This document shows, piece by piece, positions 23,339 through 64,000 of a stretch of DNA of 64,000 nt (positions are counted from its first letter, which is position 1; each line of letters opens with the position of its first letter). The DNA comes from Botryllus schlosseri (taxonomy: Eukaryota). The stretch lies in contig CM119372.1 of the NCBI GenBank assembly GCA_051294905.1, positions 18,044,001 through 18,108,000 on the forward strand, written 5' to 3'. The notes under the pieces are model-generated. The model did not search any database. It saw only the letters and a program-made list of their open reading frames with translations, and was not told the origin of the DNA. The translations under genes and the position numbers were made by a program.

Positions 23339-25600
23339 TCACAATGACAGTTCTTCGATGTCGTCATCTTGGATAGGAGTGGAGGCGTTAACGTGAAGCC
23401 CCGTTTTCACTTTATAATTTGAATTCACAGTACCGTTGACTTTCGACGACGTCACCACATTTTTCTCCCAGGGATATCCCGAATGAACCGGCTTCGCCCT
23501 TGGCGTGATTGTCTCCGCGTTTCTTTGCTCTGTCGTTGGTTTCTTATCGGACTTTGCTTGATCTCCGAACAATTGCGATAACAGATCCGAATCCTTGTTC
23601 GCTTTCCCGCTATTAACGTCGAACAACGGTTCATCATCGTCTGATCCGGAGCTCAAAATCGACGCTTTCTTATTGACTCCTCTAGGTTTACGGCTTTTAT
23701 CTATCTTGCCGGCGGTAGGAGCGTAGCTACCGAACGAAAGATCGCTTTCAGACGTTTCCACGGGCCTTTTCACAGTCGTCGGTATTCCGAGATGTAGATT
23801 CTCGACCACCGGGTCTGTATCACTACCTAGCAACGATCGGACTCTGTCCGCCTTTGATTTCTGGGTAGTTTCGCTGCTACTCATATAAACTGAATTTCTG
23901 CTTTGCGTTGCCTCGGCCGTTGTTTGCGAATCGATCAGACTCAACGCGTCGGGAGGTGATCTCGGAGAATCGTCTTCTTGTTCGATATCGCGCATTTTCG
24001 CTAGAAGAGCCGCCTTTTTTCTCTGCTGTTCCGCCGCTAGTCTCTCCTGTTCACGCTTTTCCTCTTCCTTTCTTCTCATGTCTTCCTCTATTTTCTTCAA
24101 CTTAAGATTCTCTTCTTCGGCCTTCCGCCGTAGAAAGGACTCATCGTAAGGGTCCTCGTCTCGGATCGCTTCGGCGCGAGTTTTGGATGGCTTGCGGAAA
24201 GAGTCCGGTTCGGGGCTAGATTTTTCTGCCGTTTTCTCAAACTCCAGCGAGTCTGCCACGCGATCACGAGGCGTCGGAGTATCCGACTTGAAACTTGATG
24301 TGAGGAAGGTTCTTTCTTTCACTTCCAGAACGGTTTTAGTCTCGATGCCGACTCCGTTTGCTTGGACTGCTTTTTTGTGCTCACGCCGACTAATCGGGGA
24401 TGTCGACATGGGTGCCGGAGATGGTGGACGAGGGGATGGTAAACTTTGCTCTACTTGGGTTGGCTTTGATCTATTGCTTTGTTCCGGGCTACTGAACTCA
24501 ATTGCTGCTGGTTTCGACTGCCTGCTTTCTTTATCGACAATTGCTAACTTCAAAGTTGTAGACGGCACCGATGTATCCCTCTGCTTTCTCGGTGTTGAGT
24601 TGATGGATGTAGATTCCATATTTCGAAGGCTGTATATATTGGTAACGCCGAGAGCTCGTTCTTTTTCTTTGAGCTTACCAACGACCGATTGGTGTTCTTC
24701 GATCATTTCGTCTAATTTCTTTTGAGTTTCTTTGTGCTTTTGACGCTCCGTTCGGATTTGTCTCTTGTAGCTATTTTCAATCAATTCGTACTTTTTCTCG
24801 AGCTCCTTCACTCTTCTTTCGGCTACACCTAGGTCGTTCTCTGTATTACTGAGCTTCCGAGCAAGATCGGACCTTTCGCCGAGGTTCTTTTCTTCAACGA
24901 TTACTTTCAATTTCTTCAAGGCTTTGCTCATCTTTTTCATTTCTTGATCATTGTCTCGCAATTTTTCGTTGAGACGCTTTTCCGAGTCTTGAGCTTTTCT
25001 GAGCCGCGCTCTCAAGACTTTTTGCTCCTCAAAATTCTGCGAAATTAATCGTGGGAGATCGTTTTCGACATCTTCAAATTTTCGGAGCGCCTTGTCTTGG
25101 CGAAACTGCACCGTTTTTAATATTTTGTTCTCCTTTAGCAGATCTTCGAGGCGCTGTTCTGCTTCGCCTAGTTCATTTTGAACGTCGTTGATGCGTCTCT
25201 GCTTCGCTGAGAGCAATCTTGCGGCAACCACGTCATGACGAGGTCGGGCCCCGCGGTCTGAATAGTTCGAACGCAATCCATTACTACGTCTTGGCTTTAC
25301 GTAAGTCCTACGGCCAACACTTTGGGTAGTTTTTTTACTGCTCGTCGAATGCAAATCTGAAGTGGAAGATTTGTAACTATCCAGCTCCCCTCGCCGTCTT
25401 GGCCTGTCATTACCTGTCCGCTTTCGACTAGGGGTTCTTTGCCTGCTTCGACTTTCTGTTTCGAAGTCATCAGAATAGTCTGATCGATAGGATACATCGT
25501 CATCGTCGGAGTACGCCGGCGAGCGACGCCGCTCTCGGGAAGACGATCGATCCCGATAACGTCCAACAGGAGAACGACGTCTTGGTATACTTCTGCTCAT
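23339..25600 (-). CDS. LCA5: Lebercilin (LCA5)-like ciliary coiled-coil protein, 753 aa, single coding exon
   Basis: Uninterrupted ORF. Lebercilin coiled-coil signature RLLSAKQRRINDVQNEL...LLKENKILKTVQFRQDKALRKFEDVENDLPRLI...LRARLRKAQ, SFGSYAPT motif, acidic C-terminus DDDIEELSL. Confidence 0.9.
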   Translation of the reverse strand: MSRSIPRRRSPVGRYRDRSSSRERRRSPAYSDDDDVSYRSDYSDDFETESRSRQRTPSRKRTGNDRPRRRGELDSYKSSTSDLHSTSSKKTTQSVGRRTYVKPRRSNGLRSNYSDRGARPRHDVVAARLLSAKQRRINDVQNELGEAEQRLEDLLKENKILKTVQFRQDKALRKFEDVENDLPRLISQNFEEQKVLRARLRKAQDSEKRLNEKLRDNDQEMKKMSKALKKLKVIVEEKNLGERSDLARKLSNTENDLGVAERRVKELEKKYELIENSYKRQIRTERQKHKETQKKLDEMIEEHQSVVGKLKEKERALGVTNIYSLRNMESTSINSTPRKQRDTSVPSTTLKLAIVDKESRQSKPAAIEFSSPEQSNRSKPTQVEQSLPSPRPPSPAPMSTSPISRREHKKAVQANGVGIETKTVLEVKERTFLTSSFKSDTPTPRDRVADSLEFEKTAEKSSPEPDSFRKPSKTRAEAIRDEDPYDESFLRRKAEEENLKLKKIEEDMRRKEEEKREQERLAAEQQRKKAALLAKMRDIEQEDDSPRSPPDALSLIDSQTTAEATQSRNSVYMSSSETTQKSKADRVRSLLGSDTDPVVENLHLGIPTTVKRPVETSESDLSFGSYAPTAGKIDKSRKPRGVNKKASILSSGSDDDEPLFDVNSGKANKDSDLLSQLFGDQAKSDKKPTTEQRNAETITPRAKPVHSGYPWEKNVVTSSKVNGTVNSNYKVKTGLHVNASTPIQDDDIEELSL

Positions 25601-26150
25601 CTGGCTAAATTTTCAAACATCGAACGGGATAAAAATGCAAGAATATCTTCTCCGGTCGGCAATATGGACCAGTAAATTGTCGCAGTGATGGCGCGACGGG
25701 TGCGCAGCGTTAGTTACCAAGCAGGAATGAGAAATATTTGTTTTGATTATCACCTGGAGCATGACTACTGGCGTAAAGTATGGCTCATTACAACTGTCAG
25801 TACTTCGTACTTGGAGAGACCGAATGCGTTTTTCGACAACCTCTCAAACCAACAATATGTATGATACATGAAATTAGTCCTTTAGCAACGAAAATGGAAT
25901 GAGTGTATTAGATTTCCTACCAAGTAAATTCATATTCTGTTCTGCTAATACTTCGTACTTTACAACCCATGATTGCAAGAGAACAAATGAACGGAGCAGA
26001 CTACAATCTATCATTGGGTTATAATTTTCATCTGAACAAGTTACACACAATGTACAATGCGATGTAATGAACAGATAGGAGGATGCCGAACGACACGCAC
26101 CAGTAGCGATCCTTTACTCTAACATCCAACTCGGCCTAGAGTGCCCGAGG

Positions 26151-28121: not shown

Positions 28122-29094
28122 GGTTGCCAGTAAACTCGCCCCAAAGTAAATTCGGCCCGTCGAATTCGGCCCTCGGTCACTTCGGCCGTCGGTGAATTCG
28201 GCCCTCGGTAAATTCGGCCAGGGCCAGAGTAACAACAACAGTTACAATACCATTATCTAACCTGAACCCTAACCCTAATCCTAACCTAACCCTAATCCTA
28301 ACCTAATCCTAATCCTAACCCTTACCTAATCCTAACCTAACCCTAATCCTAACCCTAATCCTAACCATAACCTAACCCTAATCCTAACGCTAATCCTAAC
28401 CCTAAACCTAACCCCTTACCAAATCACTTGATAATATTATAATTATGTAATATAATACACATTATTAGTTATTAGTAGGTTTAGGGTTTGGATTAGCGTT
28501 AGGGTCAGGGTTAGGTTAGGTTAGGATTAGGTTTAGGATTAGGGTTAGGTTAGGGTTAGGTTAGAATTAGGGTTAGGGTTCAGGTTAGATAATATTATAA
28601 TTATGTATTCTAATACACAATTTCACACAATGTTCTCCGAGGGCCGAATATACCGATTGAATTCGGCTGTCGGTAAATTCGGCCCCGTAAACATCGGCAT
28701 ATATATATACATATATATATTTATACGCATACCCTGTTCTCCAAATCACTTGATAATAATATAATTATGAAATTAATTCACATTAATAGTTGGTAATACA
28801 TTTTTATAAAATATTCTCCGAGGGCAGAATTGACCGAGTAACCAGTGAATTGACCGGTGAATTCGGCCGTCGGTAAATTCGGTCCCCGTGAATATCCGCG
28901 CTATCTCCCGTGATTACGCGATCTACGCATACCCTGACATCCAAATCACTTAATAATAGTATAATTAGGCAATTAATTCATGTTAACGGTTGGTAATACA
29001 TTTTAATACAATTTTCTCGGTGGGCCGAATTTACTGATGTAATGGCCGAATTTGCCTGGGCCGAATTTACTTTGGGGCGAGTTTACTGGCAACC
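28122..29094. mobile_element. Foldback/MITE, Mutator-like by TSD length, with internal telomere-like arrays (level 4 of nest)
   Basis: Perfect 37-bp TIR GGTTGCCAGTAAACTCGCCCCAAAGTAAATTCGGCCC; perfect 9-bp TSD tgtcatcat (28113-28121, 29095-29103). Subterminal aattcggcc repeats; ~190-bp internal duplication at ~28630-29000. Confidence 0.9.
28256..28590. repeat. Degenerate telomere-like arrays: (CCCTAA/CCTAA)n at ~28256-28400 and (TTAGGG/TTAGG)n at ~28478-28590
   Basis: Read directly; the two arrays form an inverted pair inside the foldback element. Confidence 0.85.
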
Positions 29095-31309
29095 TGTCAT
29101 CATAGTGCTGTGCACAGGCGAGGTTTTCACTCAAATGCTGACCGATTGACGAAGCACATGCTTGGTAATCGTCATAGCAGTCTGTTTTGGCAGCCAATTT
29201 GCACTGACGTGTGAGCTCCGTGCGAGTATTTGCGCATGTTTTTGACCGAATCAATTTTGGGATATGCTGCTTGATACGCTCAAACAATCTTTGAGATGTA
29301 CGTCCTACATACCTACTATCACAGTGGCACTTGTATTGGTGAACAACATTACTTGCATTAAAGGCAGGAAGTACATCTTTTCGAGAGTTGGGCAACATGG
29401 GTTTCGTTGTGTACACCACATGCGTGTTTACGCTGTAATAACAACGGTGAACAGCCGACTTAATGAGTTTTTCAAAACGGTTGGACACGTTACCTAGCCA
29501 AGGTAAGTGTAAAAATGCCGGGCATTTTTCTGGTCCGTATTTGGGAGCTATATCCGATTTTTTCAAAACCCTGGAGATGGAGCATTTTAATATCTGGTCT
29601 GGATAGCCATTTTTGGACAGAATCAAGTGGATATCATCCAATTCACGTGACAGTTTTTCCGGTGAACAAATGCGCAAGGCCCGATTGACAAGAGATGAAA
29701 TAAGGTTTAGTTTACGCCGCTTCGGGCAGAATAAATCCCAACGGATATAATGACCAGTGAAGGTAGGTTTTCTGTACACCGACGTTAAAAACGTTTGTCC
29801 TGATCTCTCTACTAAGACGTCTAAAAAGGGAAGGGCAGCATCAGTTTCCTTTTCCACGGTAAATTGTAGAGCTGGATGGAGACAGTTCAATTTTTCGAAG
29901 AAATTATCACACTCTCGCTCATTTTTAAAGGCAACAAAGGTGTCATCGACATATCTAAAATGGAGGAGAGGTTTTGCGACGTTTTCAAACAATTTCTTTT
30001 CATGGTATCCTACGAATATATCGGCCAAACTAGGTCCCAACGGTGAACCCATCGCAATGCCATTGCATTGGCGGAACATCGTGTCATTAAAGCTAAATTC
30101 AACGCTACTAGTAGCAGTTTGCAACAATTCAAGAAATATTTCACGCGGTAGTTTCGGAGGTTCAAGCGTGCCATCATAAAGCGCGTCTGCGCAGATTTCG
30201 AAAGTTTCCGACAATGGTACGTTGGTAAAAAGACTTTTCACATCAAATGAGCTAAGAAATACATTGGACGGATTTAATTTGGCGCGTTTTAATTCGTCTA
30301 CAAACGTGAACGAGTCGCGAATACAGTAGTAGCCTTCGTGACTACTTTGACCACCTCTGCTTATAAGTATGTAGTCGCAGCTTCTGGGGAGCTCCTCCTC
30401 CAGACTCCAATTTCGCCTACCAACTTAATAGACATGCAGAGACTTGATGATTGTCGGGATATGAGAATTTTATACCAAGTGCGGAGATTTGATAATTGAC
30501 CCATCTGAACGGAATCATCTTCTTGATTGATACACGGATTTCTACGTCTATTCGCTACGACCCTTGAAAAAAGCGCTAAAACCAAAGAGGGTGGGCCCGT
30601 TGACCAGGGGGGGGGGGGCGGGCGACCGACCACACCACTCGCCCACCCCAAAAGCCACCACTGGCTATAATCATAGTCAAGGCTATGCTATAATCATAAT
30701 CATGATGAAGGTTTTTTCATTCGCTCAAGGCATAAAATGTCCTATGCGACACATAAGACACAGTGCGATGTAATGAACGTATAGGAGGATGTCGAAAGGC
30801 AAGACGTGGCAGAGTAGTCTTGATCTGATGACTCATGACTGTCCACGTCCATACCAGGGTTGTAATGACCCGATTAATTTTGTTGAAATGCGTAAAATGA
30901 TTTTGCTGGACTCGAGTAAAAGTGGGATTGACTTAATTCGGAATTTTGACCTTGTGTTTCTTTTTTCGTGGCTTCAAGATTTATCCAAACCCCCGTTAAC
31001 AACAACAAATTAACAAGTTTGAATCATGGCACAAGAAAACCAATTGAATTGAATAAAAACCAAGACTGTGAGCAAACTCATTATCATCATCAGGGTCTGT
31101 CATCGATTGTCTTTTCTCCAGATCCTTCCAGACATTTTATAATTATCCGGTTGGCATGACGAAGGCGTTTCTGTTTTCTCTTGTACCTTCACGATTCTGC
31201 CGGAAATATTATGCGAAAGTCAAAAGTAAGATTTGCTGGCTCAGATATCTGCGGGTCTGCGACTCCGTCGAAAATATATATATATATTATATCGTAGAAG
31301 GAAGGAACT

Positions 31310-47844
<16,535 letters not shown>

Positions 47845-48961
47845 TCGGCGTCGAGTTGTAGTAGAATGTCGTTGCGAACGTGCCGGACGAAGGAACGCGC
47901 TCAAGCTGTTCATTTTTGTCGCCAAATGAAGTTTACGGCGTGCGGCACGGGCTGCTCAGGCTCTAAAAGTAGTCAAGACTTTTATGTTATCGACCTGCAT
48001 CAGAATGGCATCGTGTTCCCATCGGAAAATGGTCGCGTTATTGCAATGAAATCAGTGTCTTTCCCTTGTAGGGTTTTTCTTGTATTTTTTGAATAGTTTG
48101 CATCGCTCTGCACTGCGTCGCGTCGGGAAACAGTCGACTTTTTGTATGACCTGGCGAACGCTGACGAGTAGACGCTAAGTTCCGGCAGTAGCGCATAGTA
48201 TGATATGATTTGAACAGACACACTTGTTATCCCGATTATGAGCTTTTTTGTATCATCCTGATTGCATTTTTATTAAGAGAGTTAATACCGAAAATCAGCG
48301 CTTTTATCCGTCTTGCATACAGTACATTCCATGATCGGCCTTTCTCCGAATGCAGAACGCTTATGATGCGCTCTTCGGGGACGCGGTGTGTAAAAAGAAA
48401 CGGCTTGTGCGTGTTTTGTACTGACGCGGGCCAGTGATTATTGATTTAGCAGGTGATCGTAATCAAATATGTATCCGCAATGAAATAGATCGAATCAATG
48501 GTGCCGATTCCACCTCAACTTGGGGGGATATTAGTGGGCCCAAAGTCCGATACCGAGCTCGGTTTAGTAACTTTTTGCTACTGCTCGTGTTTTTATGGAA
48601 GTGAAAGAAATTCGATACCAAACAAAATTTGGTTCATTCCATTATAAATGGGGAGATGACAACGCTAATTATATAATACAACATACATATTCAGGCTTCG
48701 CAATTTCAACAAGATCAATTCCTATTCTGAAATGGAACTAATGATTACTTCGCATTTGTACATGGCATATTAGCTTTATTGTAGACGCGTAAATGTATAT
48801 TCTACATGGTTAATTTTGAACGTAATGCATTCTGTAATTTTATGCGATGCGGATGATCTATTTTTCAATTGTATGATTTTAACACTCATATCGGTGAATT
48901 GATTAAATGCTGAAAATTAGTACTTGTCTCCTGAAACGATGTTCAAAGCGGGTTTAAAGGT

Positions 48962-49230
48962 CTGACCGAGCGAGATAGTGTAATGGTGATGCGTCCGGCT
49001 TCTTGATCGGTAGGTCGTAGGTTCGATCCCCGGCCGGCTCAGAGCAAAGACTCGGAAACTGGTATCCACAGCTATCCTGCTAGGCGTTCAGCATCCACGG
49101 GCAGCTTGGAGGAGAGAAAAAACGGCAGTGCATGCTCGATGACCTTACGCCACGGTCGTATCGCATCTCCGTCGTCAAAGCATCTCGATGGTGCGGGCGA
49201 AAAAGCATATCTTATCTCCTTCTCTCGCAG
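48962..49230 (+). mobile_element. tRNA-derived SINE
   Basis: A-box TAGTGTAATGG, B-box GGTTCGATCCC, then body aaagactcggaaactggtatcc...tcgcatctccgtcgtcaaagcatc. A second copy lies at 52140-52371 (-). Confidence 0.85.
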
Positions 49231-49610
49231 TCTACAGGTTGACTTTTTTTGACAGATAAAGTATAAACCAGGCACCGAAATCGCAAGAAGCGCAAAGAAA
49301 TTCAACAAATATTACATATTAACACAGGGGTGGGCAATTATTTTCTTCCACGGGCCAAATGAGAAGTAGAAAATACGTTGGCGGGCCGAGTGGAAAATTT
49401 TAGCTATATTCTCCAGCGCCTTTTGATTTTGCATCTAAATTACATCGTTAGTAAATGTTGCTCAGTGAATATGCTGATGTTTAGTAATGAGAAACTGACG
49501 GATAATTGAAAAATATCTATTTACCGTCATGATTGGAAGCAACGTTAAACATGATACATTTTTAACTCTCTTTAAACCCCTGTCCACGTTCTTCTATTAA
49601 GACTCCAAAA

Positions 49611-49920
49611 CAGTGGTTCTCAAGCTTTTTTAGGCACGCCTTCCTTTATGAGAATGAAACATTTCGCGCTCCCCATATCAAGATATTAGAAAATATTAAA
49701 TAGTATAACCAGAAAGCTAGCAATACTAACGGATAGTTTGATGGCATGGAAGGTTCTGGCTGTTAATGAGAGAATTCAGAAATATGAAAGTCGCCGAATA
49801 CATATAGCCAAAACGAAACGCAAGAGATAAATCACGCGTAGCGCGGAAAAATGTTTCATTAAACGTCGGCTTCGCGCCACCCTTCTGATGCTTTAACGCC
49901 CCTCAGTTCGAGAACCACTG
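49611..49920. mobile_element. hAT-type MITE, related in opposite orientation to 52912-53226
   Basis: TIR cagtggttctc/gagaaccactg; shared internal tttgatggcatggaagg. TSD not recognisable. Confidence 0.65.
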
Positions 49921-52139
49921 CACTGAAATGTATATGCAATAGTACAAAGCTTGTTTTCGTGGTCGCTACCTTCCGAGCAGTGTGCACTGTGCACTGTGCA
50001 GCTTAAAAAGCCCTTATGTAGAGTAAAGCTTGCAGTTTTTCTGAACTTCGTCCTCTCTTGACTGAGAGTTTCGTGTTTTTGTCATAAGATCGACTTTACT
50101 TAGTGTCCTTAATCTTATCGACATGCTCCGCAAAAACTAAAACGACGGGTTTACCCCTGACTCCAGTATACAAATATTTAGTGCTCTAGTCTAAACCTAA
50201 ACCTTCTTTGAATTTCAGTTTTAGGCTTTCTTTTTTGGCATGCCCGTTAATCCTTTATGGGTGATACATATGATGAGTCGTATAGTAATCGCGAGCACTG
50301 ATTGATTTGCTTTACGAATTAGGGATTCGGAAGCGTTTTACGAATTAGGGATTTAGAAACGTATCACGTAACAATTTTAAACGCATGCCGTATAATGCAC
50401 AATGTGGCATTGTCACAGTGACAATGGCAAGGAAGAAGGTTTGAACTATTTCTAAATAATTATTTTTTGTGACTTCAATTGCTAGTCATAATTTGCCACA
50501 TTTCCTTTATTTTGAATCTGGATTACGCATGCGAGGTAAGTAGTCAGCGTAATCGTGGCATATTATTGAACAGGTTTCAAAGTATACGAATTTACTGTTC
50601 ATTTGATACCGACTATGGTTTTAGTAATTCAAAAAGCAAGTTTCATGTTTTGAATTACAAGCAACCTTTGGTGCCGTAACGACCCGAGTTCTACCCCTTG
50701 CGTGACAGGTTACAGAAACTTCGAAATTTGAATCTTCAGTGATGGTATTTGCAACTATCCTCGTGCTAGTAGAATGATGATTGTTTCGTGACAGAAAGTA
50801 GAAGGACAATTTAACGTCATTTTTCCCGCGCGTCGAGGACGTGCTGATGCACAATGCCGCTGGCTACACCCGTTTTCGTACCATACTTTCGAACCATTAC
50901 AGTGCGCAAACATAAATTCACTGCGGCTGGTGCGGAACAAAGTTATTGGTAAAGCTACAAGTAGTCGTAAGTCAAACGACTTTTTACAATTGCTTCGCAA
51001 CTACAAAAGTTGGGAGCCACTTCACTTGAATTTCCTATAAGGTATATTTGAATCATCCCGTGCGTACCATCCCACAGATTGAAAATCACTGCTGTATGAG
51101 ATTCGTGGCCAGCTAATAAGTCTCATGCTGTCAGCCAACCATCTTCAGCCACCAGTGTAACATTGAAGCGGTGGTGTGTGTAAACATGAGACACGTCAAT
51201 GCAAACAAAACTGCCGGCAGTCCTAATCGAGTATCGACAACAATTGATCAGAGAAATTTCAGAAAATTGCTTGGTTCGACATCACCCAGAATGGGTAGCG
51301 ATTTTTAGAACAGGCAGATGTTCAGAAGATTTTTCGTTGAGTTCACGTCAGTGGCTTACGTGACTGCATACTGAGTGTGCACTGTGCAGTGCATATAGAG
51401 GCATTCATATATTGAAGATACACATCAAATTAGCATGGTAGTTTTCAAGATTAAGACGGTAAAGATACAGGGGTATAGAGAACGGGCGGACACTATGTTT
51501 TCACCGCAATCATTAAGCAGCTGTTATCGCTCATGCTCATTGCTCAATGCTCACTAAATTATTGCTCAGCCTCAGTAGGGTCTGTATCAGGCCTCAGGGG
51601 TGGTGCGAAAGTTCTGTTCACATTCGTGTTCGGTATGAGGACCTCGATATTTCACAGATTTGAGTTCTCAATATGTAAGCCGACCTAGCATGATTCTCCG
51701 CAATGAGCATTTTTTGAACTAGGATAAGCCTTTCAAGGCAAACCAGCCTCATGCGCCTGCCGCATATCAAAAATCTTAGCCGCGCGAGATTTCATGTTGC
51801 CATGCAGGCTTCTTGATTATTGAGTACCTTTCCCTCAAGAAATAATACGCATGATTTATCGAAATGGGCATTTCGGCGTCGTCCGTTACCGCGCCGCGAC
51901 GCACCCAGACATAATGAAGTTGTAGGCCCTTTAACACGCGACTCCGAGGAGTGTTCCAAAACGAACAGTTCGATATCTGTACTAGGCTTACCATACGTCC
52001 TCTTTTAAGAGGATTTGTCCTCTTTTTTGACTTTTTTGAAAGTGTCCTCGGAGCAGTGGCGTAGCAGCCATCTGGCGGTTCTGGCTCTGCGCCAGGGGCG
52101 GCAGGCTCCAAGGGGGCGGCAAAATGAGGCTGCACAGTG

Positions 52140-52371
52140 AGAGAGATGCCTGCATCATCGTGATGCTTTGACGACGGAGATGCGATAAGGACTTTATAGT
52201 AAGGTCATCTAGTCTGCACCCCGTTTTTTTCTCCTCCGTGATTGCTGGGCGTCTAGCGGGATAACCGCGGATACCAGTTTTCGAGTCTTCGGTCTGACCC
52301 GGCCGGGGATCAGGCCCACAACCTACCAATCAAGAAGCCGGACGCATCACCATTACACTATCTCGCGCGGC
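52140..52371 (-). mobile_element. tRNA-derived SINE, same family as 48962-49230
   Basis: Reverse complement gcgagatagtgtaatggtgatgcgtccggcttcttgat...gaagactcgaaaactggtatcc...tcgcatctccgtcgtcaaagcatc. Confidence 0.85.
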
Positions 52372-52911
52372 GTGTAGACAGCCGGCTAAAAGAAGAGTGC
52401 TTGGTAGTCCTATAGCTGGCGTCCCGTCAGCTAAAATTTAATTAAACAGGTCTCAATCGAAAGCTAGTGTCGCACTGATTCCGAAAACACGAAATAATAT
52501 GGTAACATGGCGAAGGAATCACTCCGAAATAGCCGTCACGGCCGATTGTTCGGAGAGTTCGCAGAAAAAGGAGAATGTCTGGCGAATAAAACAGAAGATG
52601 CTGGCCTCAGTGTTGTTGAAGAATTTAGACGATGCATGTTTCAAGCATAGGACAGATTTAAACTTGAAGCTGAAACTAGGTTTACCGGCATTCACCACTT
52701 AAATGATATATTTGGATTTTTGAATTCCCACGCGCTGCTGCAAAGCGAAAGTCACAATTTATTCACCAGCGCTTTTAGAAGCACTTATGACGACGAGGTG
52801 GACTTTTTGGCGTTAGCTGCGAAAATTGTCATGCCTTATACCTCGAATTAGGGGTCATATAAAGCAGAAGATTGCTAGCTTTTCGTACAAACCAATATGA
52901 GGCCTCTAGGA

Positions 52912-53226
52912 CAGGGGTTCTCAACCTGGGGGACGCGCCCCCGTTGGGGGTGCGTGAAAGCATCTTAAGGGGGCGCGAAGAATCGGTCAAATGATTTTTT
53001 TTCGCGCTATGCGCGATTTATTTCCAATTCACGCGTGTTTCTCTTTATATAGACCCAGTTTCTTATTTTTAAATTCTCTCATCAACAGTCATACCCTTCC
53101 ATGCCATCAAACAATCTGTTAGGGTTGCTAGCATCCCGGTTGGATCTTGTAATATGACGATACGAGGGCGCGGAATTTTTCGCTATCCTAAAGGGGGGCG
53201 TGTCTAAAAAAAGTTGCGAACCACTG
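52912..53226. mobile_element. hAT (Buster-type TSD) MITE nested in 52054-53841
   Basis: TIR caggggttctcaac/gttgcgaaccactg; TSD ctctagga/ctctggga. Confidence 0.78.
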
Positions 53227-54251
53227 CTCTGGGACGAACACAAATTAAGTTATAATCATATGAAGTTGTTCAACTTGAGATTTTAAAAGGGTTAAGAGGC
53301 TGGTGCGGAGCAGTGAAACCACGTTTGATCGTAGTGCAACAACGTTTGATGTTTTACAGTGGTTGTTTAATGCAAAGCTACTTGATTCGACACCGTATTT
53401 ATGCTCGTGTCTGAAACTTTATCTGAACATTGGTGTTTCAACTGCGAGCTGTGTGAGGAGCTTCTCAAAGCTCAAACTGATTAAGTCTTATATATTTAGT
53501 TCTATCATGAATAATGATCGGCTATCAGCTCCATCCATTCTGTCTATAGAAAGAGACTACGTTCAAAAACTTGAATTTGAGGATATTATCGCTGCTTTTG
53601 CTTTGAGGCGGCCATTAATTTTCTATTTGTACAATACATTCGTTCGCTATTTCTTGTTTTTATTATTTTTGGCGTCATTAACGTCGAGACGGTGAGGCTG
53701 AGAAGCGGCATATTATTTGTAATCATTCCTATTGACAAGATTACTTGAACATCAATCTATGTCGAAATTTGATGCGGTCTACCTAGGGGGGCGGCATTTT
53801 CAAGAGAGCCAGGGGCGGCAGCACATGCTGCTACGCCAGTGCCTCGGAGGACGCCCTTTTGTCCTCTTTTTTGAGATTTTGTCCTCTTTTTTGAAAATTT
53901 AGGTCAGATTTAGAGGAAATCGCGAATGATATGCCGTAAATTAGCGCAGAAGTGAAGCTCCGGCGGGTATTTCGGAGGGAAAAGTGGTGATTTAAGCCCT
54001 GAGCGAAAAGAATCCCTTTTTTTTTTCAAGTCATCCACCTGGCAATGTAGAGGGAAAAACGTTATTTTGAGCTCTGAGTGGAAGTGATGACCTTTTATTT
54101 TTATTTTTTTAGTCAACCGATCACGAAGTGGGAAAAATTTACCGGTTTTTGAGAATTCTTCTCCAGTTTTGCATGTCTGAAATTTCTGAAAAAGTGTCCT
54201 CTTTTTACATTTCCAAAATATGGTAAGCCTAATCTATACAGATATGTTTAA

Positions 54252-54605
54252 TAGGGCTCTTCAAAAATGACTTTTTTTCTCAAATCGTATTGGCTGCTTG
54301 ATAAAATTGTTAGGTTACCTAATTTCAGCCTACACACAAAATTTGGTTCAATTCCAGCCAGTAACCGCTTTGCTACATGAGAAGAAAGTTTCTATTTATT
54401 ATCTAAAAATAAATAATAAAAAATTTGAAAATTTTCTATTCACCCCATGAAAGTGTTAGGCTGACTATAGAAACGATCCTCACCGAATTTGGTTCAATTC
54501 CAACCAGTGGAAGCGGAGTTATTGCCGTCGAAAAATTTTGATTTGAATATAATAGTATTTACGGTGACCGATTCTTTGTTTATTTATTATAGTTGTGCTC
54601 ACCGT
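54252..54605. mobile_element. Truncated copy of the 34785-35348 MITE
   Basis: Near-collinear with 34785-35135 from the tagggctcttcaaaaatgac terminus. Confidence 0.8.
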
Positions 54606-55771
54606 AAATACTATTTTATTCAAATCAAAATTTTTAGTAAGTACATTAATAACTGATCTGAATAAAGTTTGTCGCCATTCGCCACACGACATTTCAATCT
54701 CCCAGAAAATAGGTAAATCCAATCCAAATCCAAATCCGTTCTGAAAAAAATGTCTAATCCAAATCCAATCCAAATCCGACAAAATTTCACAAATCCTGTT
54801 TTTTCAAAACCTAATCCTAATCCATGCTCATGCTCATCTCTGCCTCCTGTATAGCTTTGACAGCTAGGCTAATGAACAGGCTGAAGTATAGAACGCCATA
54901 AATGACGCGAAATCTGTAATGTAGACGTTCGAACGGGTCATTCGGGAGTAGGGCTGGAAAATGACCTTCTTTTTACTCAACTATATTTGTAAATACTATT
55001 TATGAATCTAATAAGTAACACTCCCATTATTCGATTTACGGATAAATCTCCCAAACTATTCCCTCTTTTCCATACATCTAACGCAATATGACTATTGGTT
55101 ATCAACCTTTTGCAAGCCGTGACAGGATTATTATGAACAGATTGCTCAATGCCCATTGCTCAATGACATAGATGCGACTGGCGAGGCGCTAGAAGAGAGG
55201 TGTCATGGATTACATACGCCAACGCCAAGTAATGCCGAGTAACTGAGAATATGCTGTAGTTCGTCCGTATGAATAGGGCTGGGCACAATGATTCGAGCAA
55301 TCCAACCTGAATCGAGTAATAATTGTAATGATTCGGGTAGTGAGCAATGTTCCCTTTAGGCTGCGCACGTGCGCAATTGCGCAATGCGCAGTGGTGACAC
55401 GGTCTCGGCGCACAGAAAATCTAAGCTGCGCACAAAACAATCCGAACTGATGACCTTTTTTTAGTCGTTACGCACTGTTGTCCAAGGGACCGAGCAGTGA
55501 GTTGGTGAGTGCGCGCAGACTCGTGAAGAATTAGAGCAACTCAAATTGTGTCGCGGGCCGGATTCAAACCATCTCATCGCTCGCAGGCCGGACCATTCAA
55601 ATGATTGAAATTCAATACCCTTGTTTTTTGCTTGAATACTCAATTATTAAGCCTACACAATAATATATTACATTATAACGGATCGTAGGGTTCTACTCTA
55701 GCTACACCTTCATTAGCGAACAATGGAATCAGCAAAATTAAGAATATGGCTGGTTACATATGGTAATATCA

Positions 55772-56008
55772 TAGTGTCCTATATCGTGTGGACACAAGCA
55801 AATCACACGGCTCAGTGAAATTGGTCCACGTCACACTTTCCATTTGGTCAAAGACAATTTTACGGCCATTTTTGACCGGCTTTCTGAGCGCTAAATTCGA
55901 TACTACGGGTATCAATGGAAAGCTGCTGCCGTACCGATTAAAAGTGTGGCGTAGACCAATTTCACTGATCAGTGAGATTTGCTTGTGTCCACACTATATA
56001 GGACACTA
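55772..56008. mobile_element. Short palindromic MITE with TA ends
   Basis: tagtgtcctatat.gtgtggacacaagcaaatc is inverted at gatttgcttgtgtccacac.atataggacacta. Confidence 0.75.
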
Positions 56009-56377
56009 GGGTAATGTAAAGTGCGAAAAGAGTAGTGATATACCTCATGTGTATGCGTTATGAGGAATACGTAAGATATATTGAAGCTGGTTCATTACTA
56101 TTATATCGCGATTCGGGTTTCTCCGTGTGCAGCGGTTCTCTGTTAAGTCATAAGCGAAATTGGGTGTGCGTCCACAGATATTTGAATTATATTTTTGTGT
56201 AACAATTATATTCTCCATGTAACCTGCAAATACCGGTTTCTCGCTATGGCGGTTTCACTGCTGTGAATAACTACTTTTTGGCCCATTTTCCGTAAAACTC
56301 GGAATTGAGTGTGCATCATTTTGCTTTCTCGTAATTGGACGTTAATGACGGCTCTTCCTTGCTGATGCTGACTAGAA

Positions 56378-57418
56378 TAGGGTTGCCATACGTCCGGAAT
56401 TTCACTGAAAAATCTGCGTCCGGGAGTAATTTCTAAAATACGCCTAAATGTCCGGAATTTTGAAGGCTTGAAGCAGGCTCAAAAGTTTATCGTAAATCAA
56501 CATAAACAATATTATTTTCAAGCAGATTTATGCTATTCAAAGTTGTTCTTCGCGCCGCGCGCGAGTTAATGCAACGTATAATGATATTAGTATGGGCACC
56601 AGACACCACCCTCTCCAAAAAATGCAATCAAAAGTAATATAAATAACCATCATTTACTGAAATAAGTCTGATTGGAATCGCAATTATAAGCTAACGGTAT
56701 ATTCCTAGAGCTGGTTAAGGCCGATTGGATGCTTCAATCACAGACAGTGGTTCCAAATCTTGGGGTCGTTCGCCTTTATCTTGGGATCGCGATGATGTTG
56801 AGCTTTGTCACGGAACATTTTCAAGTGGGAAATGAGGTCGCGACCATGAAAGGTTGGAAATCACCGGATGTGCAACCTGCTGGTGTATTTATACTTATAG
56901 CCTAATATATGGAAGAATCAATGTTATTGACAGAATTCATACATAAAATTTAACAGCCAAATGTACACAGTAAGTGCCCAACAAGTTACATTGACTATCC
57001 TATGATGGGCCCAAGATCAGAGCTTTTTTATGCGGAAGGGGGGGGGGGGGGGAGAAAAAATGTTGTTTCGGATCTGATTAAAACACATATACAGATAGCC
57101 GCACCGACCTAACAGTATAGCAGGACTGCCAAACACAATTCTGAAAGGCCAGACACGACTCGCCAGATGATTTCATGCGGCCCGTGGAGGAATCTATTGC
57201 AGACCCTAGCAAGTAGCAATCACCAGAGCTCACATTACAGATGGCCCAATTCATAACCTATGTTCCACTGCATTCCTGTATAGTGTATACAGTCGATGGA
57301 CGATGCTTTGCCAGTGTGACGTCATATTGACGGTCAATGAGTTACACCTCATTTTAAAATCCGCTAGTGGGCGCTAAAGAGTATCCGGAATTTGCTTCAC
57401 AAAAATATTGTAACCATA
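56378..57418. mobile_element. hAT MITE (tagggttgccata) nested in 55345-57662; holds a further small MITE at ~56745-56866
   Basis: Imperfect TIR tagggttgccata/tattgtaaccata, tccggaattt subterminal repeats, perfect TSD gactagaa (56370-56377, 57419-57426). Confidence 0.8.
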
Positions 57419-58051
57419 GACTAGAAGGAAACCACAACACCACAGTAGGATGCTCATAATGTGACCTATGAATAATTGAACATATACTCGACATTTTCTA
57501 TCTTGAGGGATTATTTGATGATAATATTTCGGGCAAAAATCTCAACATTTGTAAGAAATGTACTGGATAATACACTATACTGCCATTTTTCAAAATAGCT
57601 TCGCGGGCCGGATGCGGCGAGCCGGCCGTATGTTTGACACCCCTGAATTAGAGGGAACATTGGTAGTGAGGATGTTTTCGAATAGACCTGCTGAAATTAC
57701 ACGATCGTAGTCACTGTATAAGAGTTAATTTATCAACGAGAATTATACGATACGATATAACGACCGTAAAGCAGCTTCGGTCGGAGAGAGGAATTGAAGT
57801 TTCCAACCAGCTGGTTCTCCGTATGGAATTAGATCATCTGTAATTGCGAATACACTTCGCAGTCATTCCTTGCTTCCCAGGTATCATAAAACACGGTCGA
57901 CATGAACGCTGCAGCTACAAGTTTGATGTTGACTTGGCTTACTGATCGATTAAATAATTCATGCTGACTTAAAGAGAATATTTATATGTGTATTTATATA
58001 TAGTGTTGATTGGTTTTTGGCTTTCGCCGCCCTAGGTGGGAAGCGCTAACT

Positions 58052-58438
58052 GGTGTGCGGTCAATACCGAGAATGCTATTACCGAGAAGGACAATACCGA
58101 GAATGGACATTAGCGAGAATGGACGCCACCGAGAATGGACATTACCGAGAATGCAATATATGCAATGCAGGCATGTTATGCATATGAACAGGTCGTGTGT
58201 GTACATCACGGCGTTTCCACATTCGGTATCGATTCTCAGGTATAAATTTCTCGACAACGTCTGTTAATGATAGATTCTTGGTATTGGCAATTTCTCGGTA
58301 ATGTCCATTCTCGGTAATGACCGTTCTCGGTAATCTCCATTCTCGGTAATGTCCGTTTTCGGTAATGTCCATTCTCGGTAATAGCATTCTCGGTAATGTC
58401 CATCTCGGTAATAGCATTCTCGGTAATAGCATGGATCC
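58052..58438. mobile_element. Foldback/MITE, Mutator-like by TSD length, with inverted 15-bp subterminal arrays
   Basis: (attaccgagaatggac)n on the left and (gtccattctcggtaat)n on the right; GG...CC ends; 9-bp TSD gcgctaact (58043-58051, 58439-58447). Confidence 0.85.
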
Positions 58439-59356
58439 GCGCTAACTGTGTTAATTTCTCTGGATGAAGCTATATAATCGATTGTGACGACATACAGGAA
58501 TGGTAGCGTATTTTCATATTGGAAATATAAATATTGTAATTCGCGAATCTCATCCCTATATTCAATATCTATTAGGCTGCTTCTCGTTGCTCATATCTTT
58601 TCGTGGTGTTCTTATGGAAAATATTGCAATTTGGTGCAGCATGACAAATTCCTCAGTGTTGCGACGAAATCCACTCCGAAATTTATCTTCTTCTATGATG
58701 TTGAAAGTTTAAGTCTGGATGTCTTTCATCGGCTGCCACCATTTACGACAGTAAGGAAAACCGACCTGGAAGCATATATATTTCAAATCAAAACACAACA
58801 AGATTGTGATATAATGATTCCGCGATAATCTCATAAATAGTTTTAACCGTGTGAATATGGCAAACGTGCACTAAATTTTCGAAAGCCCCATCTCAATCAG
58901 CTCTGTCTGTAAATCTGATAACGTGATGGTCTGAGAGAGGATAAAAATGAATAGTAATGTAGGAATGAAACATATAGGCCTATATCGAAATGCTTGAAAA
59001 TCGTTTTCGCTTCACGTGACGATCTTACATTACATCAATTCCCTCGATTTTGGCACGGATAACAATAGGTATATAAGTAAGTCTCACGTTTGCCGTTACC
59101 TATTTCTATCGTTCTTGAATCAGGTAATATAAGACTTAGTTCGCGATAGGGAAGGGGTGTGTATGTTTTTGCGAACCATATGGATAAAGAGTAGTGAGGA
59201 AATTGCCCGGAGTAAAAGCCAGTCTGGGGAAGTCTGAGAGGACGACTTGCTTTAACGTGGTGTTAAGGCTCTCGACAAAGATCGTGAAAAATCAATACCG
59301 TGATTCCCAAACTCGTGCGTCCTGGTGCTCGCCATTCGTCCAAGTAACCTCACACC

Positions 59357-60604
59357 CAGGGCCGTAACAGCACTTCGTCAGGCCCCCCCCCAAAACGTTG
59401 GCCGTGGGCCCCCCATAGGGTGATAAGCCTAACTTCTGGGGGGCCGTTTGGTGAATCAGCTTTTCCCGCCTAGACGCGCGAAGCGCGAATAATTTCAGTA
59501 AATCATGATTGAATCAGGCAATATGATCGGGAATTACATATATATATTGCTATCAATTTTGATCCTCTCCCTGCTCACGTAATCAGATTTACCGGTAGAG
59601 CTGAGCGAGGTATGTTTTAAAACGTAGGACCGCCCAATAATAATTAGACAACTTCGGGCGTATACCCATTGGCAGGAACGAAACAGCACTTCGTCAGCCT
59701 CGCCACCCCACAAAAACTTGGGTTTGGGGGTCTCATAGGGTGATAAACCGACCCCTCATCACAGTGTTCGCTTTTGCCACGAAATTAGCTGCATTGTTTA
59801 GTGAGCCAGCTCGAAGCGCGAAAATTTTCGATAATTCATGATACAATCGGTCGATAAGATCGGGAATTGCTAATATATTGCTATCAATATCTTGTCCTCT
59901 CTGCTCACGTTATCAGATTTACCTGAAACTGTAGGGCCCGTAAATAATAATTAAACATCTTCGGACGGACCCGTTGGTATGACTTCGTTACATGATTTTA
60001 TTTCGTGACCTCCTGTCTGCTATATCAAAAATATAGAATCGCTCAAACGTACTAAACTAAAAGACGCACACGATTTCAAATTGGTATTTCTTCACAGGCA
60101 TATATTTTTTTCCTGCTGGATGGTATTTGTCTTCTGAGGTTCAGATTGCCAAGACAGGAAGCAACATATGGCGCCAGTCATTTAGGCGCCTATGGACAAT
60201 TAAACCTATTATTTTGTATATATAACGAAGTTTTCGGTCTGCGTAAGGGCAGTCTGTTTCGGCCAAGCTTTTCGTGCTGCCGATCGTTCTGGCACACTTC
60301 TTGGAGTCGCATGTAATAAGTCCTAAATCGTTATACATCTTGGTGCGTAGTGGCGTATTAATGGCCAACGCCGATATGTCCATTTCTATAAATCTTGCGT
60401 GTTTTTTCTTGGGGGAAGAGTACCAAATAATCAAGATATTTGGCAACTTTAAATCGCGCGCAGCGCGAAAAATTTTGGAAAATATTGCATAAATTTTCAA
60501 AAAATACTCTATAATTTATGCTAATTCACGAAATAATTTGGGGCCCCCTTCGAGCTCGGGCCCCCCCCAATTGGGGGGTTTGGGGTGCGGCAGTTACGGT
60601 GCTG
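59357..60604. mobile_element. Non-autonomous hAT element with ~320-bp internal tandem duplication, inserted in a coding exon
   Basis: TIR cagggccgtaac/gttacggtgctg; perfect TSD ctcacacc (59349-59356, 60605-60612). Units at ~59367-59680 and ~59683-59970. Confidence 0.88.
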
Positions 60605-63336
60605 CTCACACCAATATCTACCAGTGTCGCCAGCTTCAACTCGATCAATTGTCAATTCCTCTTCTGCAAAATTGCACGGAATTATACCAATTTCAGTTGC
60701 AAGAGAAATGGCATTGACTCATTAGTTACCGTTGTACGATATTCTGTCTTTGCGACTGCCAGAGCGCCGGGTGTGGTACTGTGTAGGTCCGGACATTAAC
60801 TTCTGCTCTATTATTGTTTCGAAATGATTTGCCCATTCGTTTGTCGGTCCCTTGAGCCAAGCCACTCCGTCACACCAGCGACATCTAGATAGAAATATTC
60901 ACTGGCTAAAGATAAAATGTTCATGTTGTAGCCTTCGCCGTCGTAAGGGGATCAACGGCCAACACCATTCATGAAAATTAAAATTAATTCGGGTGTTAGC
61001 ACCATTTTGGAACTAGGAGAAGTGGCCACTTGGCAGTAATGAAGGACTTACAATTTTTCAGCGTATAGTGGAGGTTGTGGCTACTTGAACCACATACACT
61101 CAAGTCCATGGTAATATTTTTAGACTACTGCTGCTACTAACTAGGCCTACTTCAACCGTGTTTCAAGCAAAACGACGAACTTTTCGCTTCCGAAATTATT
61201 TCAACTATAGAAAGTAGTTTTGGAGATAATATATCTGTATTATTTGTGATAATGAAATCATTACCACAGCCGAGCGATATAGATATTAGGCCAAACACGA
61301 CATTCGAAATATATGAACTAAGCGGGTGAGGAAAGTATGAAGCAATATCTAAATCAGTGGTTCTCGACCTTTTTGGCTTCGCGGTCCCCTTTTCGACCGT
61401 CACGGACCCCCTCAAGTTTTACTTCAAATTTGACTCAATTATGGTGCGACCGTCATCTGTCTTGTGTAAATATGAACTGTGGGCTTGTGACAACAGCAAC
61501 TAAATAACTTTTCTTGGAAAATAATATCATACAATTTCTGTAGAATTAGGGTAGACTTTTAATATTTCAAAGCTAATTTTGCAGCTGTATTTTTTTCCAC
61601 AAACCCCAACAAAGCGTCTCTAAACAGCAATATGTTTGTATCAGTAGCCTAAGCACAATTGGATATTTCATGTCAGACGATTATTCTGATGATGTGATTA
61701 ATGAGGTTTCAGCAGTTGTGGAGGAAAACTGCCTCATGCTTTCCCCAATTAAAAAAAGGTTATCAATCATTTTGCAAATTTAGAGGTCCCGTGGACCCCC
61801 TGAAATTGCTTCGCAGGCCCCTAGGCAATTCCAGCAATTCCACATTTAAGCCAGCTTCAAAGCTGTGTTATAGTGTCATACAAACTTCACGTAATTCCGG
61901 CCATATGGCGCACTAATATTAAGTTGGTAATAACAGATGCGAAATTGGGTTTGGGGGGGGGCTACGATTACATACTTGTAGACCCCCGGAAAGTCTTGCC
62001 CAGCCCCCTAATCGTAGGGCCACCACTGCATATACCTTTTCGAAGTGCACTGTATAGTTTTTGCTTAACTACTCTAATTCAATTGACTGTATTTGAAGAC
62101 TTGAACGACGTGCTTTGTACATTTAGATCGAGATTCCTCCGCGTAGGAAGTAGACTAGTAGACTTTGGATAGACTTACGTCACTTCTATCAGTACAATTG
62201 CTAGAAAAATTGGATATGAGTTTGAAATTGCAGCTGTGTTCTAGGGTACGCTATCAGGCATAAACACATCGTCTGGGAAGGCATATATATTTCATTACCT
62301 GCATTGTAAGGTAACTGAATTTCCAGCGGTAATCGATTCGACACCTGTCGACATCAGTAATCGGTCGCTATTTTCATCTAGATCCCAACTGCTAGCTGTC
62401 GATTTTAAGGTAATCGATACTGCATCCATCCCGTATTCCGCATCCTCCCCAGTTTGCACTACACACCAATACTTTCCGATATCACCTTCGTGAAACTTGC
62501 ATAAATTTTGGAAAAGATGTTCACATGAAGGCAGTGAAAACTGTATTTAAAGGGGATATATAGGCTACCCCTACCTTTTTCAGTTTCATGTCATTGTCGC
62601 CAGTTCCTGTCACCACTAACCGCTTGGCAAATTGTTTATCAAACACTTTGAAATCTGCATAATGGGTTCCGTGTGAAGTGAGGGAGACGGTGTAGGAAGC
62701 GATCCGCGAAGCAGACATAAGTCGTTGCCCTCTTTTCCAAGTGATAGTAACCGGATTCGTTGACTTCGGGCAAGTGGAAAATTTGCAACCTAGGTTGACA
62801 GCATATCCGGGTTCGACAAGAAGCGCGTTGTTCTACAACAATACATTGGTTTCGATAACAGTTGGCAAATTGACATGCGTGGTGAATTTTTGTAGGTTAG
62901 CGTAGGCTACTTGTCATAAAGCACGAGAGTCGATGCATGAGTGAGTAATGCTATGCAATACATGCTTTAATTATCGAACCACGCAGTTCGCGTTGTAGTG
63001 TGTAATTGATTGCGATCACTGATTGCGATTGCCTATTAGATGAAGTGGTCTGTAACGAAGTAGGCTACTTATTTACTTACTTATTTTTAAACTGTAGACA
63101 TCTTTAAATCAGTGGTTTCAACCTAGGGTCGTATTCGGCTTCCCAAATAGGCCGTGACCAAGGTATTCTAGTGATATCCTATTAAATTTATTTGAATTAT
63201 TCCACGTCAGCAAAAATACAAAAAAATGCGCAATTTTCATCCGTACCAAGGTTGTCATCATCATTGCAATTTTTGTACTCCGCACAAGTGCGTATACCAT
63301 CCCACAGGTTGAAAAGCACTGGTAGGCTACTTAAAA

Positions 63337-63737
63337 TAGGGTTACCATATGTCCTCTATTAAGAGGATTTGTCCTATTTTTTTGACTTTTTTGAGAGTGT
63401 CCTCGGAGGACGCCCTTTTATCCTCTTTTTTGAGATTTTGTCCTCTTTTTTGAGAATTTTGGTGATATTTATAGCAAAATTTGACTGAGATGCCGTAAAT
63501 TAGCACCGAAATGACGGTCCGGCGGGTAGTGGAAAGTTGACCTTTTTTTTAGTCAACCACCCGACAACGTGAAGGAAAAAACTGTATTTTGGGCACCGAG
63601 CGAGAAAGTTGACCTTTTTTTATTAGTCAACCGACCACAAAGTGGGAAATTTTTTTGAGAATTCTACTCCGGTTTTGCAAGTTAGAAAATTCTGAAAAAG
63701 TGTCCACTTTTTAGATTTCCAAAATATGGTAACCCTA
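63337..63737. mobile_element. Intact hAT MITE in intron 1 of the VCBP-like gene
   Basis: TIR tagggttaccatat/atatggtaacccta; tgtcctctttttt repeats; sibling of 51983-54231. Confidence 0.85.
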
Positions 63738-64000
63738 AATTATAATCACCTGTGTCGTGGCGGTAATGATTATCTTGTTTTCGGAAGTTTGTGGAAATAA
63801 ATTATTCTTAACCCATGACAGGCTTATTTGGTCTTCTTGAGATTTCCTTGTCACTTCCGTGAGTTCCGCTGTTTTGACTGCTATTCCACGAACGGTCCAG
63901 CATGTCCCGAAAAACAGAAGCAGGCTCAGAAATTTTGGCTTCATTTATCACAACAGATGCCGATATATTGGTACAGGTAATAATTAAATGTGCATATGCA

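Follow-up and report, generated by a model that had tools for sequence, protein, structure and literature searches.

The 64,000-nt stretch analysed here, hereafter the window, comprises positions 18,044,001 to 18,108,000 of contig CM119372.1 (G000:C2:18044001-18108000) in the 495.5-Mb, 219-contig Botryllus schlosseri assembly GCA_051294905.1. Toward its right-hand end lies a minus-strand gene of six coding exons (63944-58726), first read from stop-to-stop frames and the sequence, which is called the double-V gene below after the two tandem immunoglobulin V domains (V1 and V2) that it encodes. We consider it very probable that this is a single-copy gene of the VCBP type which lacks a chitin-binding domain (CBD), stops just after V2 and carries a transposon in exon 5 of the assembled haplotype. 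The predicted product would be a secreted protein of 317 residues in which a leader and a short conserved spacer precede two V domains in tandem, both of the VCBP kind; it would have no CBD and would stop 5–6 residues past V2, a build that has been reported for Ciona VCBP-D. The element in exon 5 appears to be a young, non-autonomous, hAT-like transposon, and it sits one codon past the F-strand cysteine of V2.

Every splice site of the double-V gene is GT..AG and the exons join in phase (Table 1). With the element and one copy of its target-site duplication left out, the coding sequence (CDS) is 954 nt long, i.e. 317 codons and a stop, and contains no internal stop. The first residues of exon 1 are M-K-P-K and a hydrophobic stretch some 14 residues long; this putative leader aligned with the hydrophobic start of P0001, a related protein from another organism that is described below. 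The frame of exon 1 matched no Pfam family, and the 5' untranslated region (UTR) of the gene probably extends beyond the end of the window. Two D-x-G-x-YWC motifs were observed, one in exon 3 and one in exon 5, and a C-x-C-x-x-C ... VAW ... GPT run spans the joint between exons 3 and 4. Without the element and one duplication copy exon 5 measures 109 nt, and its donor at 59299, in phase 2, fits the acceptor of the terminal exon. An earlier note on this DNA, made from the sequence alone, had joined a leader, V1 and V2 in phase; its exons 2–4, its motifs and its terminal piece are retained in the present model, whereas exon 1 proved to be 195 nt long and the coding exons to number six rather than five. 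The first of its two proposals for the 3' end, a stop just after V2, is borne out, as this piece is in phase with the donor at 59299 and coincides with the end of P0001.

Table 1. Coding exons of the double-V gene and the element inserted in exon 5, in window positions and in the order of transcription.
Feature	Position	Strand	Length and content	Basis
Coding exon 1	63750..63944	-	195 nt, phase 0 end; ATG 63944; donor CAG/GTGATT; hydrophobic leader, ~35-residue conserved spacer, first strand of V1	tblastn, P0001 residues 8-73 vs 63932-63732; splice context
Coding exon 2	62575..62832	-	258 nt, phase 0 to 0; strands A-E of V1	Contig piece of RNA run X3; 42% identity to P0001 68-153; weak V-set match (E 0.052)
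Coding exon 3	62299..62495	-	197 nt, phase 2 end; V1 strands F-G, linker, V2 strands A-B	48% identity to P0001; only VCBP3 chains among PDB matches at E<=10
Coding exon 4	60730..60884	-	155 nt, phase 1 end; V2 from the cysteine cluster to strand D/E	Own-genome search with P0001, E 7.8e-6 here; tblastn; splice context
Coding exon 5, first part	60605..60663	-	59 nt; V2 strands E-F, to one codon past the conserved cysteine	
Target-site duplication, copy 1	60612-60605	-	Last 8 nt of the first part of exon 5	
Inserted non-autonomous terminal-inverted-repeat element (hAT-like)	59357..60604		1,248 bp; flanked by 8-bp direct repeat GGTGTGAG	
Target-site duplication, copy 2	59349..59356	-	8 nt identical to the other side	
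Coding exon 5, second part	59299..59348	-	50 nt, phase 2 end; V2 FG loop, like complementarity-determining region 3 (CDR3); donor CG/GTATTG	tblastn, P0001 289-307 vs 59354-59298, 42% identity, E 0.004 (C-terminal query)
Terminal coding exon	58726..58765	-	40 nt including TGA 58728-58726; V2 strand G and 5-6-residue tail	In phase with donor 59299; P0001 global alignment ends at the same position

Relatives were sought with HMMER; exon 2 by itself, run against 1.84 billion representative proteins, had 23 matches at E<=0.001. Nearly the whole of exon 2 is covered, at 41% identity, by P0001 (319 aa; E 6.6e-11) and by P0004 (133 aa; E 5.3e-9). The remaining 21 are long proteins with several matched stretches, and P0013, the one that was scanned, is a multi-Ig protein. 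P0001 derives from a single 1195-nt transcript-type contig of a public run, and P0004 is seemingly a genomic frame that reads into the intron behind the exon 2 equivalent. When aligned with the 317-residue model, P0001 was collinear from start to stop, with 135 of the 312 aligned positions identical (43%); the two have in common a spacer of some 35 residues that separates the leader from V1, and likewise the end, about six residues past the last V2 strand. In a tblastn search of the window, residues 289–307 of P0001 matched a site that lies 1.25 kb downstream of the V2 YWC. When the gene's own genome was searched with P0001, three matches at the double-V locus and none outside it scored below E 0.4, and the gene is hence predicted to be single-copy at the sensitivity of this search. 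Word-based protein searches yielded nothing for exon 2 among longer proteins, only P0001 itself for P0001 (in a search that covered proteins up to 559 aa, longer fused forms lying outside its scope) and only P0001 for the profile A3.

Comparison with proteins of known structure supports the assignment of the V-V part to the VCBP type. In a search of the PDB, a single alignment of P0001 with amphioxus VCBP3 (2fbo; E 1.7e-11) takes in V1, the linker and V2, and the next match after 2fbo was an antibody light chain at 0.0018. A profile built from P0001 and exons 2–4 raised 2fbo to 1.1e-15 and found 1xt5 at 1.6e-4, compared with 0.002 for the best non-VCBP entry. Exon 3 alone had two matches at E<=10, both of them VCBP3 (2fbo, 1.3e-5; 1xt5, 0.0086). 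The C-x-C-x-x-C cluster of V2 aligned with that of VCBP3, and the V2 of P0001 was recognized by the Pfam V-set family at 1.5e-10. The proposal of the earlier note that V1–V2 is of the VCBP type is upheld by the profile search and by exon 3.

The earlier note had also found no chitin-binding pattern downstream of V2, and the searches made here agree with it. A total of 172 minus-strand frames of at least 28 aa overlap positions 49000 and above; 150 of these, between 50224 and 63663, were scanned and none matched CBM_14 at E<=1 (the remaining 22 comprise 18 below 50224 and four above 63663, the exon 1 frame being scanned later). Genome-wide, none of the 42 CBM_14 matches listed is near C2:18.04-18.11 Mb, and the nearest of them on the same chromosome are at 5.29 and 26.13 Mb, megabases away from the window. 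A canonical V-V-CBD paralogue was sought by tblastn of an early 5-exon model against 70 kb surrounding the CBM14 sites of ranks 1, 2 and 3, all of them strong, and against the 10 kb that flank the window at either end, and nothing better than E 8.6 was obtained. A genome-wide V-set search listed 93 matches, among which the exons of the double-V gene itself are absent, so that this search is too insensitive to judge canonical VCBPs. A V-V part of the VCBP type with no chitin-binding domain, which is what a CBD-less VCBP amounts to, was found in the double-V gene.

Four RNA runs (X1, X3, X13 and X17) were examined. In X3, positions 604–859 of a 1118-nt contig cover 62577-62832, that is, exon 2 from edge to edge, with nine differences. 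The contig continues for 259 nt on the 5' side of this piece and for 603 nt on the 3' side, and both flanks fit the model: 64 nt of UTR plus 195 nt on the one side, and 503 nt of remaining CDS plus 100 nt, approximately the 3' UTR, on the other. Spliced contigs of a neighbouring LIM-domain gene are held by the same run. Raw-read depth over the double-V exons is low in X13 and X17. Exon coverage estimated from depth in these sparse bins agrees with the model, but it carries no weight here, summed contig depth being a poor measure.

The element in exon 5 had gone unreported in the earlier note. Its terminal inverted repeats are imperfect, with 12 of 15 end positions matching in inverted order, and begin with CAG. 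At the DNA level the genome yielded 9,299 first-look candidates, 40 of which were scored; among these 40, the full-length copies span query positions 55-57 to 1304-1305, in exact agreement with the borders of the element, and share 90–99% identity with it. Twelve loci were examined, one of them without an end match, and perfect 8-bp duplications were observed in eight of the 11 copies with both ends, this insertion included; two further copies had partial duplications (5–6 bp) and one had none. The family is very abundant and young, with copies of 1.25–1.33 kb that are up to 99% alike. Most copies contain approximately 58 nt near the 3' end that are extra relative to the one in exon 5. The frames of the element matched no significant Pfam family and include no transposase frame; the genome holds at least 150 Dimer_Tnp_hAT matches, many of them in open frames of 600–934 aa, and none is tied to these ends. 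An 8-bp target duplication together with such an end motif is a hallmark of hAT elements. We take the element to be hAT-like on these hallmarks, i.e. the length of the duplication and the end motif, together with the presence of hAT dimerization domains in the genome. With non-autonomous hAT transposons resembling miniature inverted-repeat transposable elements it has in common the 8-bp target-site duplication, short imperfect terminal inverted repeats that start from CAG, and a high copy number.

The empty site, with the element removed, reads through in frame and aligns with P0001. In contrast, none of the 21 GT..AG pairs that are in frame and free of stops restores the 109-nt exon across the element, as each deletes at least 12 nt or adds at least 48 nt. 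The assembled allele is unable to yield the normal protein by any GT..AG splice, and the insertion is most likely an ordinary, perhaps polymorphic, disruption, i.e. a recent null allele.

Several other features of the window were recorded. Convergent with the double-V gene is a LIM-domain (paxillin-like) gene at 44219-48913 on the plus strand (Pfam LIM, E 4e-23); its spliced contigs in X1 and X3 (44219-44393, 45907-46137, 47234-47353 and 47682-48913) contain three GT..AG joints. At 48966-49051, about 85 nt reach an RNA depth of approximately 180–190 in X13, where the reads begin at 48966 right after the template-switch oligo, diverge from the window after 49051 and carry a near-fixed G>C at 49044; Rfam gave no match in 48700-49500, and the signal probably stems from part of a strongly expressed gene or repeat that lies somewhere else. 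In X17, 139 reads join 45475 to 57024 on opposite strands and 310 reads have poly-G tails behind 57052 (57024-57052); both are likely a library artefact at a transcript start. Just downstream of the stop of the double-V gene, 58065-58425 is an array of 16-nt units (six copies listed) in the form of long inverted arms (87 nt, 83% complementary), and it is a high-depth repeat in the RNA runs. A repeat at the start of intron 1 (63337-63744) recurs about 9.5 kb downstream (51983-54238) at 85–88% identity, and contigs and reads that join 52045 to 53842 point to copies elsewhere without the 1.8-kb middle. No Rfam match was found in the window. The left half includes an exon-sized minus-strand frame at 13720-14013 that belongs to another gene and has a C2-domain match (E 1e-10); a single 757-aa open frame at 23342-25612 (minus strand), rich in K, E, R and S, with a Lebercilin (LCA5-type ciliary protein) domain at E 1e-50; and a 473-aa open frame at 29006-30424 (minus strand) with a reverse-transcriptase domain (RVT_1, 1e-9), the C-terminal Y-x-C-x-C ... 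Y-V-G-R-T run of which we take to resemble the GIY-YIG nucleases of Penelope-like elements.

A number of observations weigh against a CBD-less VCBP-type gene that ends after V2, and have to be set beside the evidence above. Within P0001, Pfam detects V2 only, and single exons of the gene match Pfam weakly (V-set 0.052, I-set 0.066). Against the PDB, exon 2 alone scored best with antibody heavy chains (E 0.059), VCBP3 being outside the best 60, and exon 4 alone had no match. An AlphaFold2 model of P0001, made from a 5-row alignment (A2), had a mean pLDDT of 29.9 and is unusable as support for the fold. From the RNA runs only the exon 2 contig piece of this gene was listed, and none of the joints listed concerns exons 3 to 6. 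The 230 nt that follow the stop (scan to 58500) contain no AATAAA, only a GATAAA at 58687, and the stop codon of P0001 is deduced only from its matching end. As for the inserted allele, splicing from 60598 to 59428 would keep the frame with 87 extra nt, and the death of that allele is to this extent unproven. Lastly, Ciona VCBP-D, which shares a VCBP-type V-V part without a C-terminal CBD, is likened to the double-V gene by description only.

The preference of exon 2 for antibody heavy chains would suit a protein of the immunoglobulin superfamily with two V domains that is unrelated to VCBPs and resembles VCBP3 only in the general manner of V-set domains; an Atlas look-up of P0001, which gave generic V-set clusters only, and the word-based protein searches, which returned no named VCBP, are in line with such a protein. 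We regard it as very unlikely, given the lead of 12 orders of magnitude that VCBP3 has over the next match in the PDB, the single alignment that covers both domains and the linker, the shared V2 cysteine cluster and the fact that exon 3 matches VCBP3 alone. It is more improbable still that the gene is a canonical VCBP with a chitin-binding exon that was overlooked because it is divergent, split into small exons or placed far downstream by way of a GTAAAT in the terminal exon. CBM14 domains are often split in this genome, many matches spanning profile positions 24-53 only, and a possible donor, GTC/GTAAAT, does stand ahead of the stop; but CBM_14 was missing from the scanned frames and from the neighbourhood of the locus, P0001 ends at the same point without a CBD, and the convergent LIM-domain gene ends at 48913, which leaves less than 10 kb of repeat-rich DNA. 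The second proposal of the earlier note, that the transcript runs on through downstream exons (57837-50621) into a novel C-terminal module of about 165 added residues, fared worse, and we give it next to no credence. The five tail pieces, placed from open frames at about 57837-57765, 57713-57662, 55335-55219, 50953-50869 and 50764-50621, are indeed open, a GT at 60598 allows an in-phase chain of all five, and the first of them is unique in the genome. However, the chain fits the phase of no other donor, and this GT is part of the transposon's own terminal inverted repeat; the conserved stop at 58726, moreover, comes before all five pieces. Pieces 2 to 5 overlap dispersed repeats: piece 2 one with 39 other scored copies at 74–86% identity, piece 3 one with 40 copies at 87–92% (1,076 candidates), and pieces 4 and 5 two families with copies at 66–80% and 92–99% (1,195 candidates). 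No scanned frame of the tail stretch had a Pfam match at the curated cut-off, no joint linking the pieces is among the joints listed (a further 246 being unlisted), and raw-read depth is zero over 50671-51337 in X13 and X17. A weaker point is that the X3 contig extends 603 nt 3' of exon 2 where about 900 would be required, as this contig is maybe incomplete. Since the donor at 60598 belongs to the transposon repeat and the true exon 5 donor at 59299, in phase 2, fits 58765, the module is unsupported; it is an artefact of a splice-like GT inside a transposon and of open frames in repeats.

With the double-V gene taken as a CBD-less VCBP-type gene, the insertion itself can be read in other ways than as a recent null allele. 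The gene might be dead throughout the species, the insertion having fixed a loss and the RNA being residual or derived from the broken allele. The break in a coding exon that none of the 21 pairs repairs, and the low raw RNA depth in X13 and X17, speak for this, but the 954-nt frame is otherwise free of stops and frameshifts, and the element is 98–99% like other copies, which makes it recent. In addition, the X3 contig differs at 9 of 256 exon 2 positions, which indicates that other alleles, with or without the element, are transcribed. We therefore hold species-wide death to be unlikely. In vertebrate antigen-receptor genes V is parted from J at the spot that corresponds to the site of this insertion, one codon past the F-strand cysteine, and a transposon is thought to have split the ancestral V exon; hAT enzymes, like RAG, leave hairpinned flanks with imprecise repair. 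Were one of the many hAT transposases of the genome to excise the element in somatic cells, the rejoined exon could carry footprints that vary within the CDR3-like loop (FG) of such a V-V protein; if true, this would parallel, in a living animal, the way in which V(D)J joining arose. This idea is barely conceivable to us, and the position of the element may be due to chance: by our estimate about 7% of random hits in the CDS would land no more than six codons from either such site.

A CBD-less VCBP-type gene disrupted in the assembled haplotype by a recent insertion hence remains the reading that we favor. The double-V gene and P0001 indicate that the CBD-less V-V form, with an N-terminal spacer of its own, is conserved in at least two further genomes, and they offer a second system in which to ask what VCBP V domains bind. 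By analogy the protein may, with about an even chance, act as a soluble binder of microbial surfaces in the gut lumen or the blood, untethered to chitin; the conserved architecture suggests that the V-V module also works untethered from gut chitin. The locus also holds a warning for annotation, in that a transposon-borne GT and open frames in repeats can mimic an extra C-terminal module.

VCBPs are a well-studied case of diversified immunoglobulin V domains in immunity outside the vertebrates, and almost all of the work on them known to us concerns amphioxus and Ciona. A literature search for VCBP in five other ascidian genera found only a review, which treats the Ciona genes alone. The family build described in PMC4008424 is a leader, V-V and a CBD. 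Amphioxus VCBP3 (PDB 2fbo, V1-V2; 1xt5, V1) has a tandem V1-V2 that can be aligned in one stretch with that of the double-V gene, and both possess G-x-YWC F strands and, in V2, a C-x-C-x-x-C cluster followed by a V-x-W-x-x-GP run. The likeness is low, about 60 bits over 220 positions, and VCBP3 carries a C-terminal CBD according to the family description in PMC4008424, whereas the double-V gene ends after V2. Ciona VCBP-A, -B and -C have in common with it a leader and V-V, and are, according to PMC4008424 and PMC7947342, secreted proteins of immune type found in gut and haemocytes; unlike in the double-V gene, their C-terminal domain is of the CBM14 type and binds gut chitin. Ciona VCBP-D, in contrast, is described without a CBD in a 2021 review (PMC7947342). 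The double-V gene comes from another organism, the genome of which is much larger than that of Ciona. The term "non-canonical", which the earlier note had used for the architecture, is hence a fair description, but such a form is not new: the CBD-less architecture itself is already known from Ciona VCBP-D, and what is new here is the insertion in exon 5.

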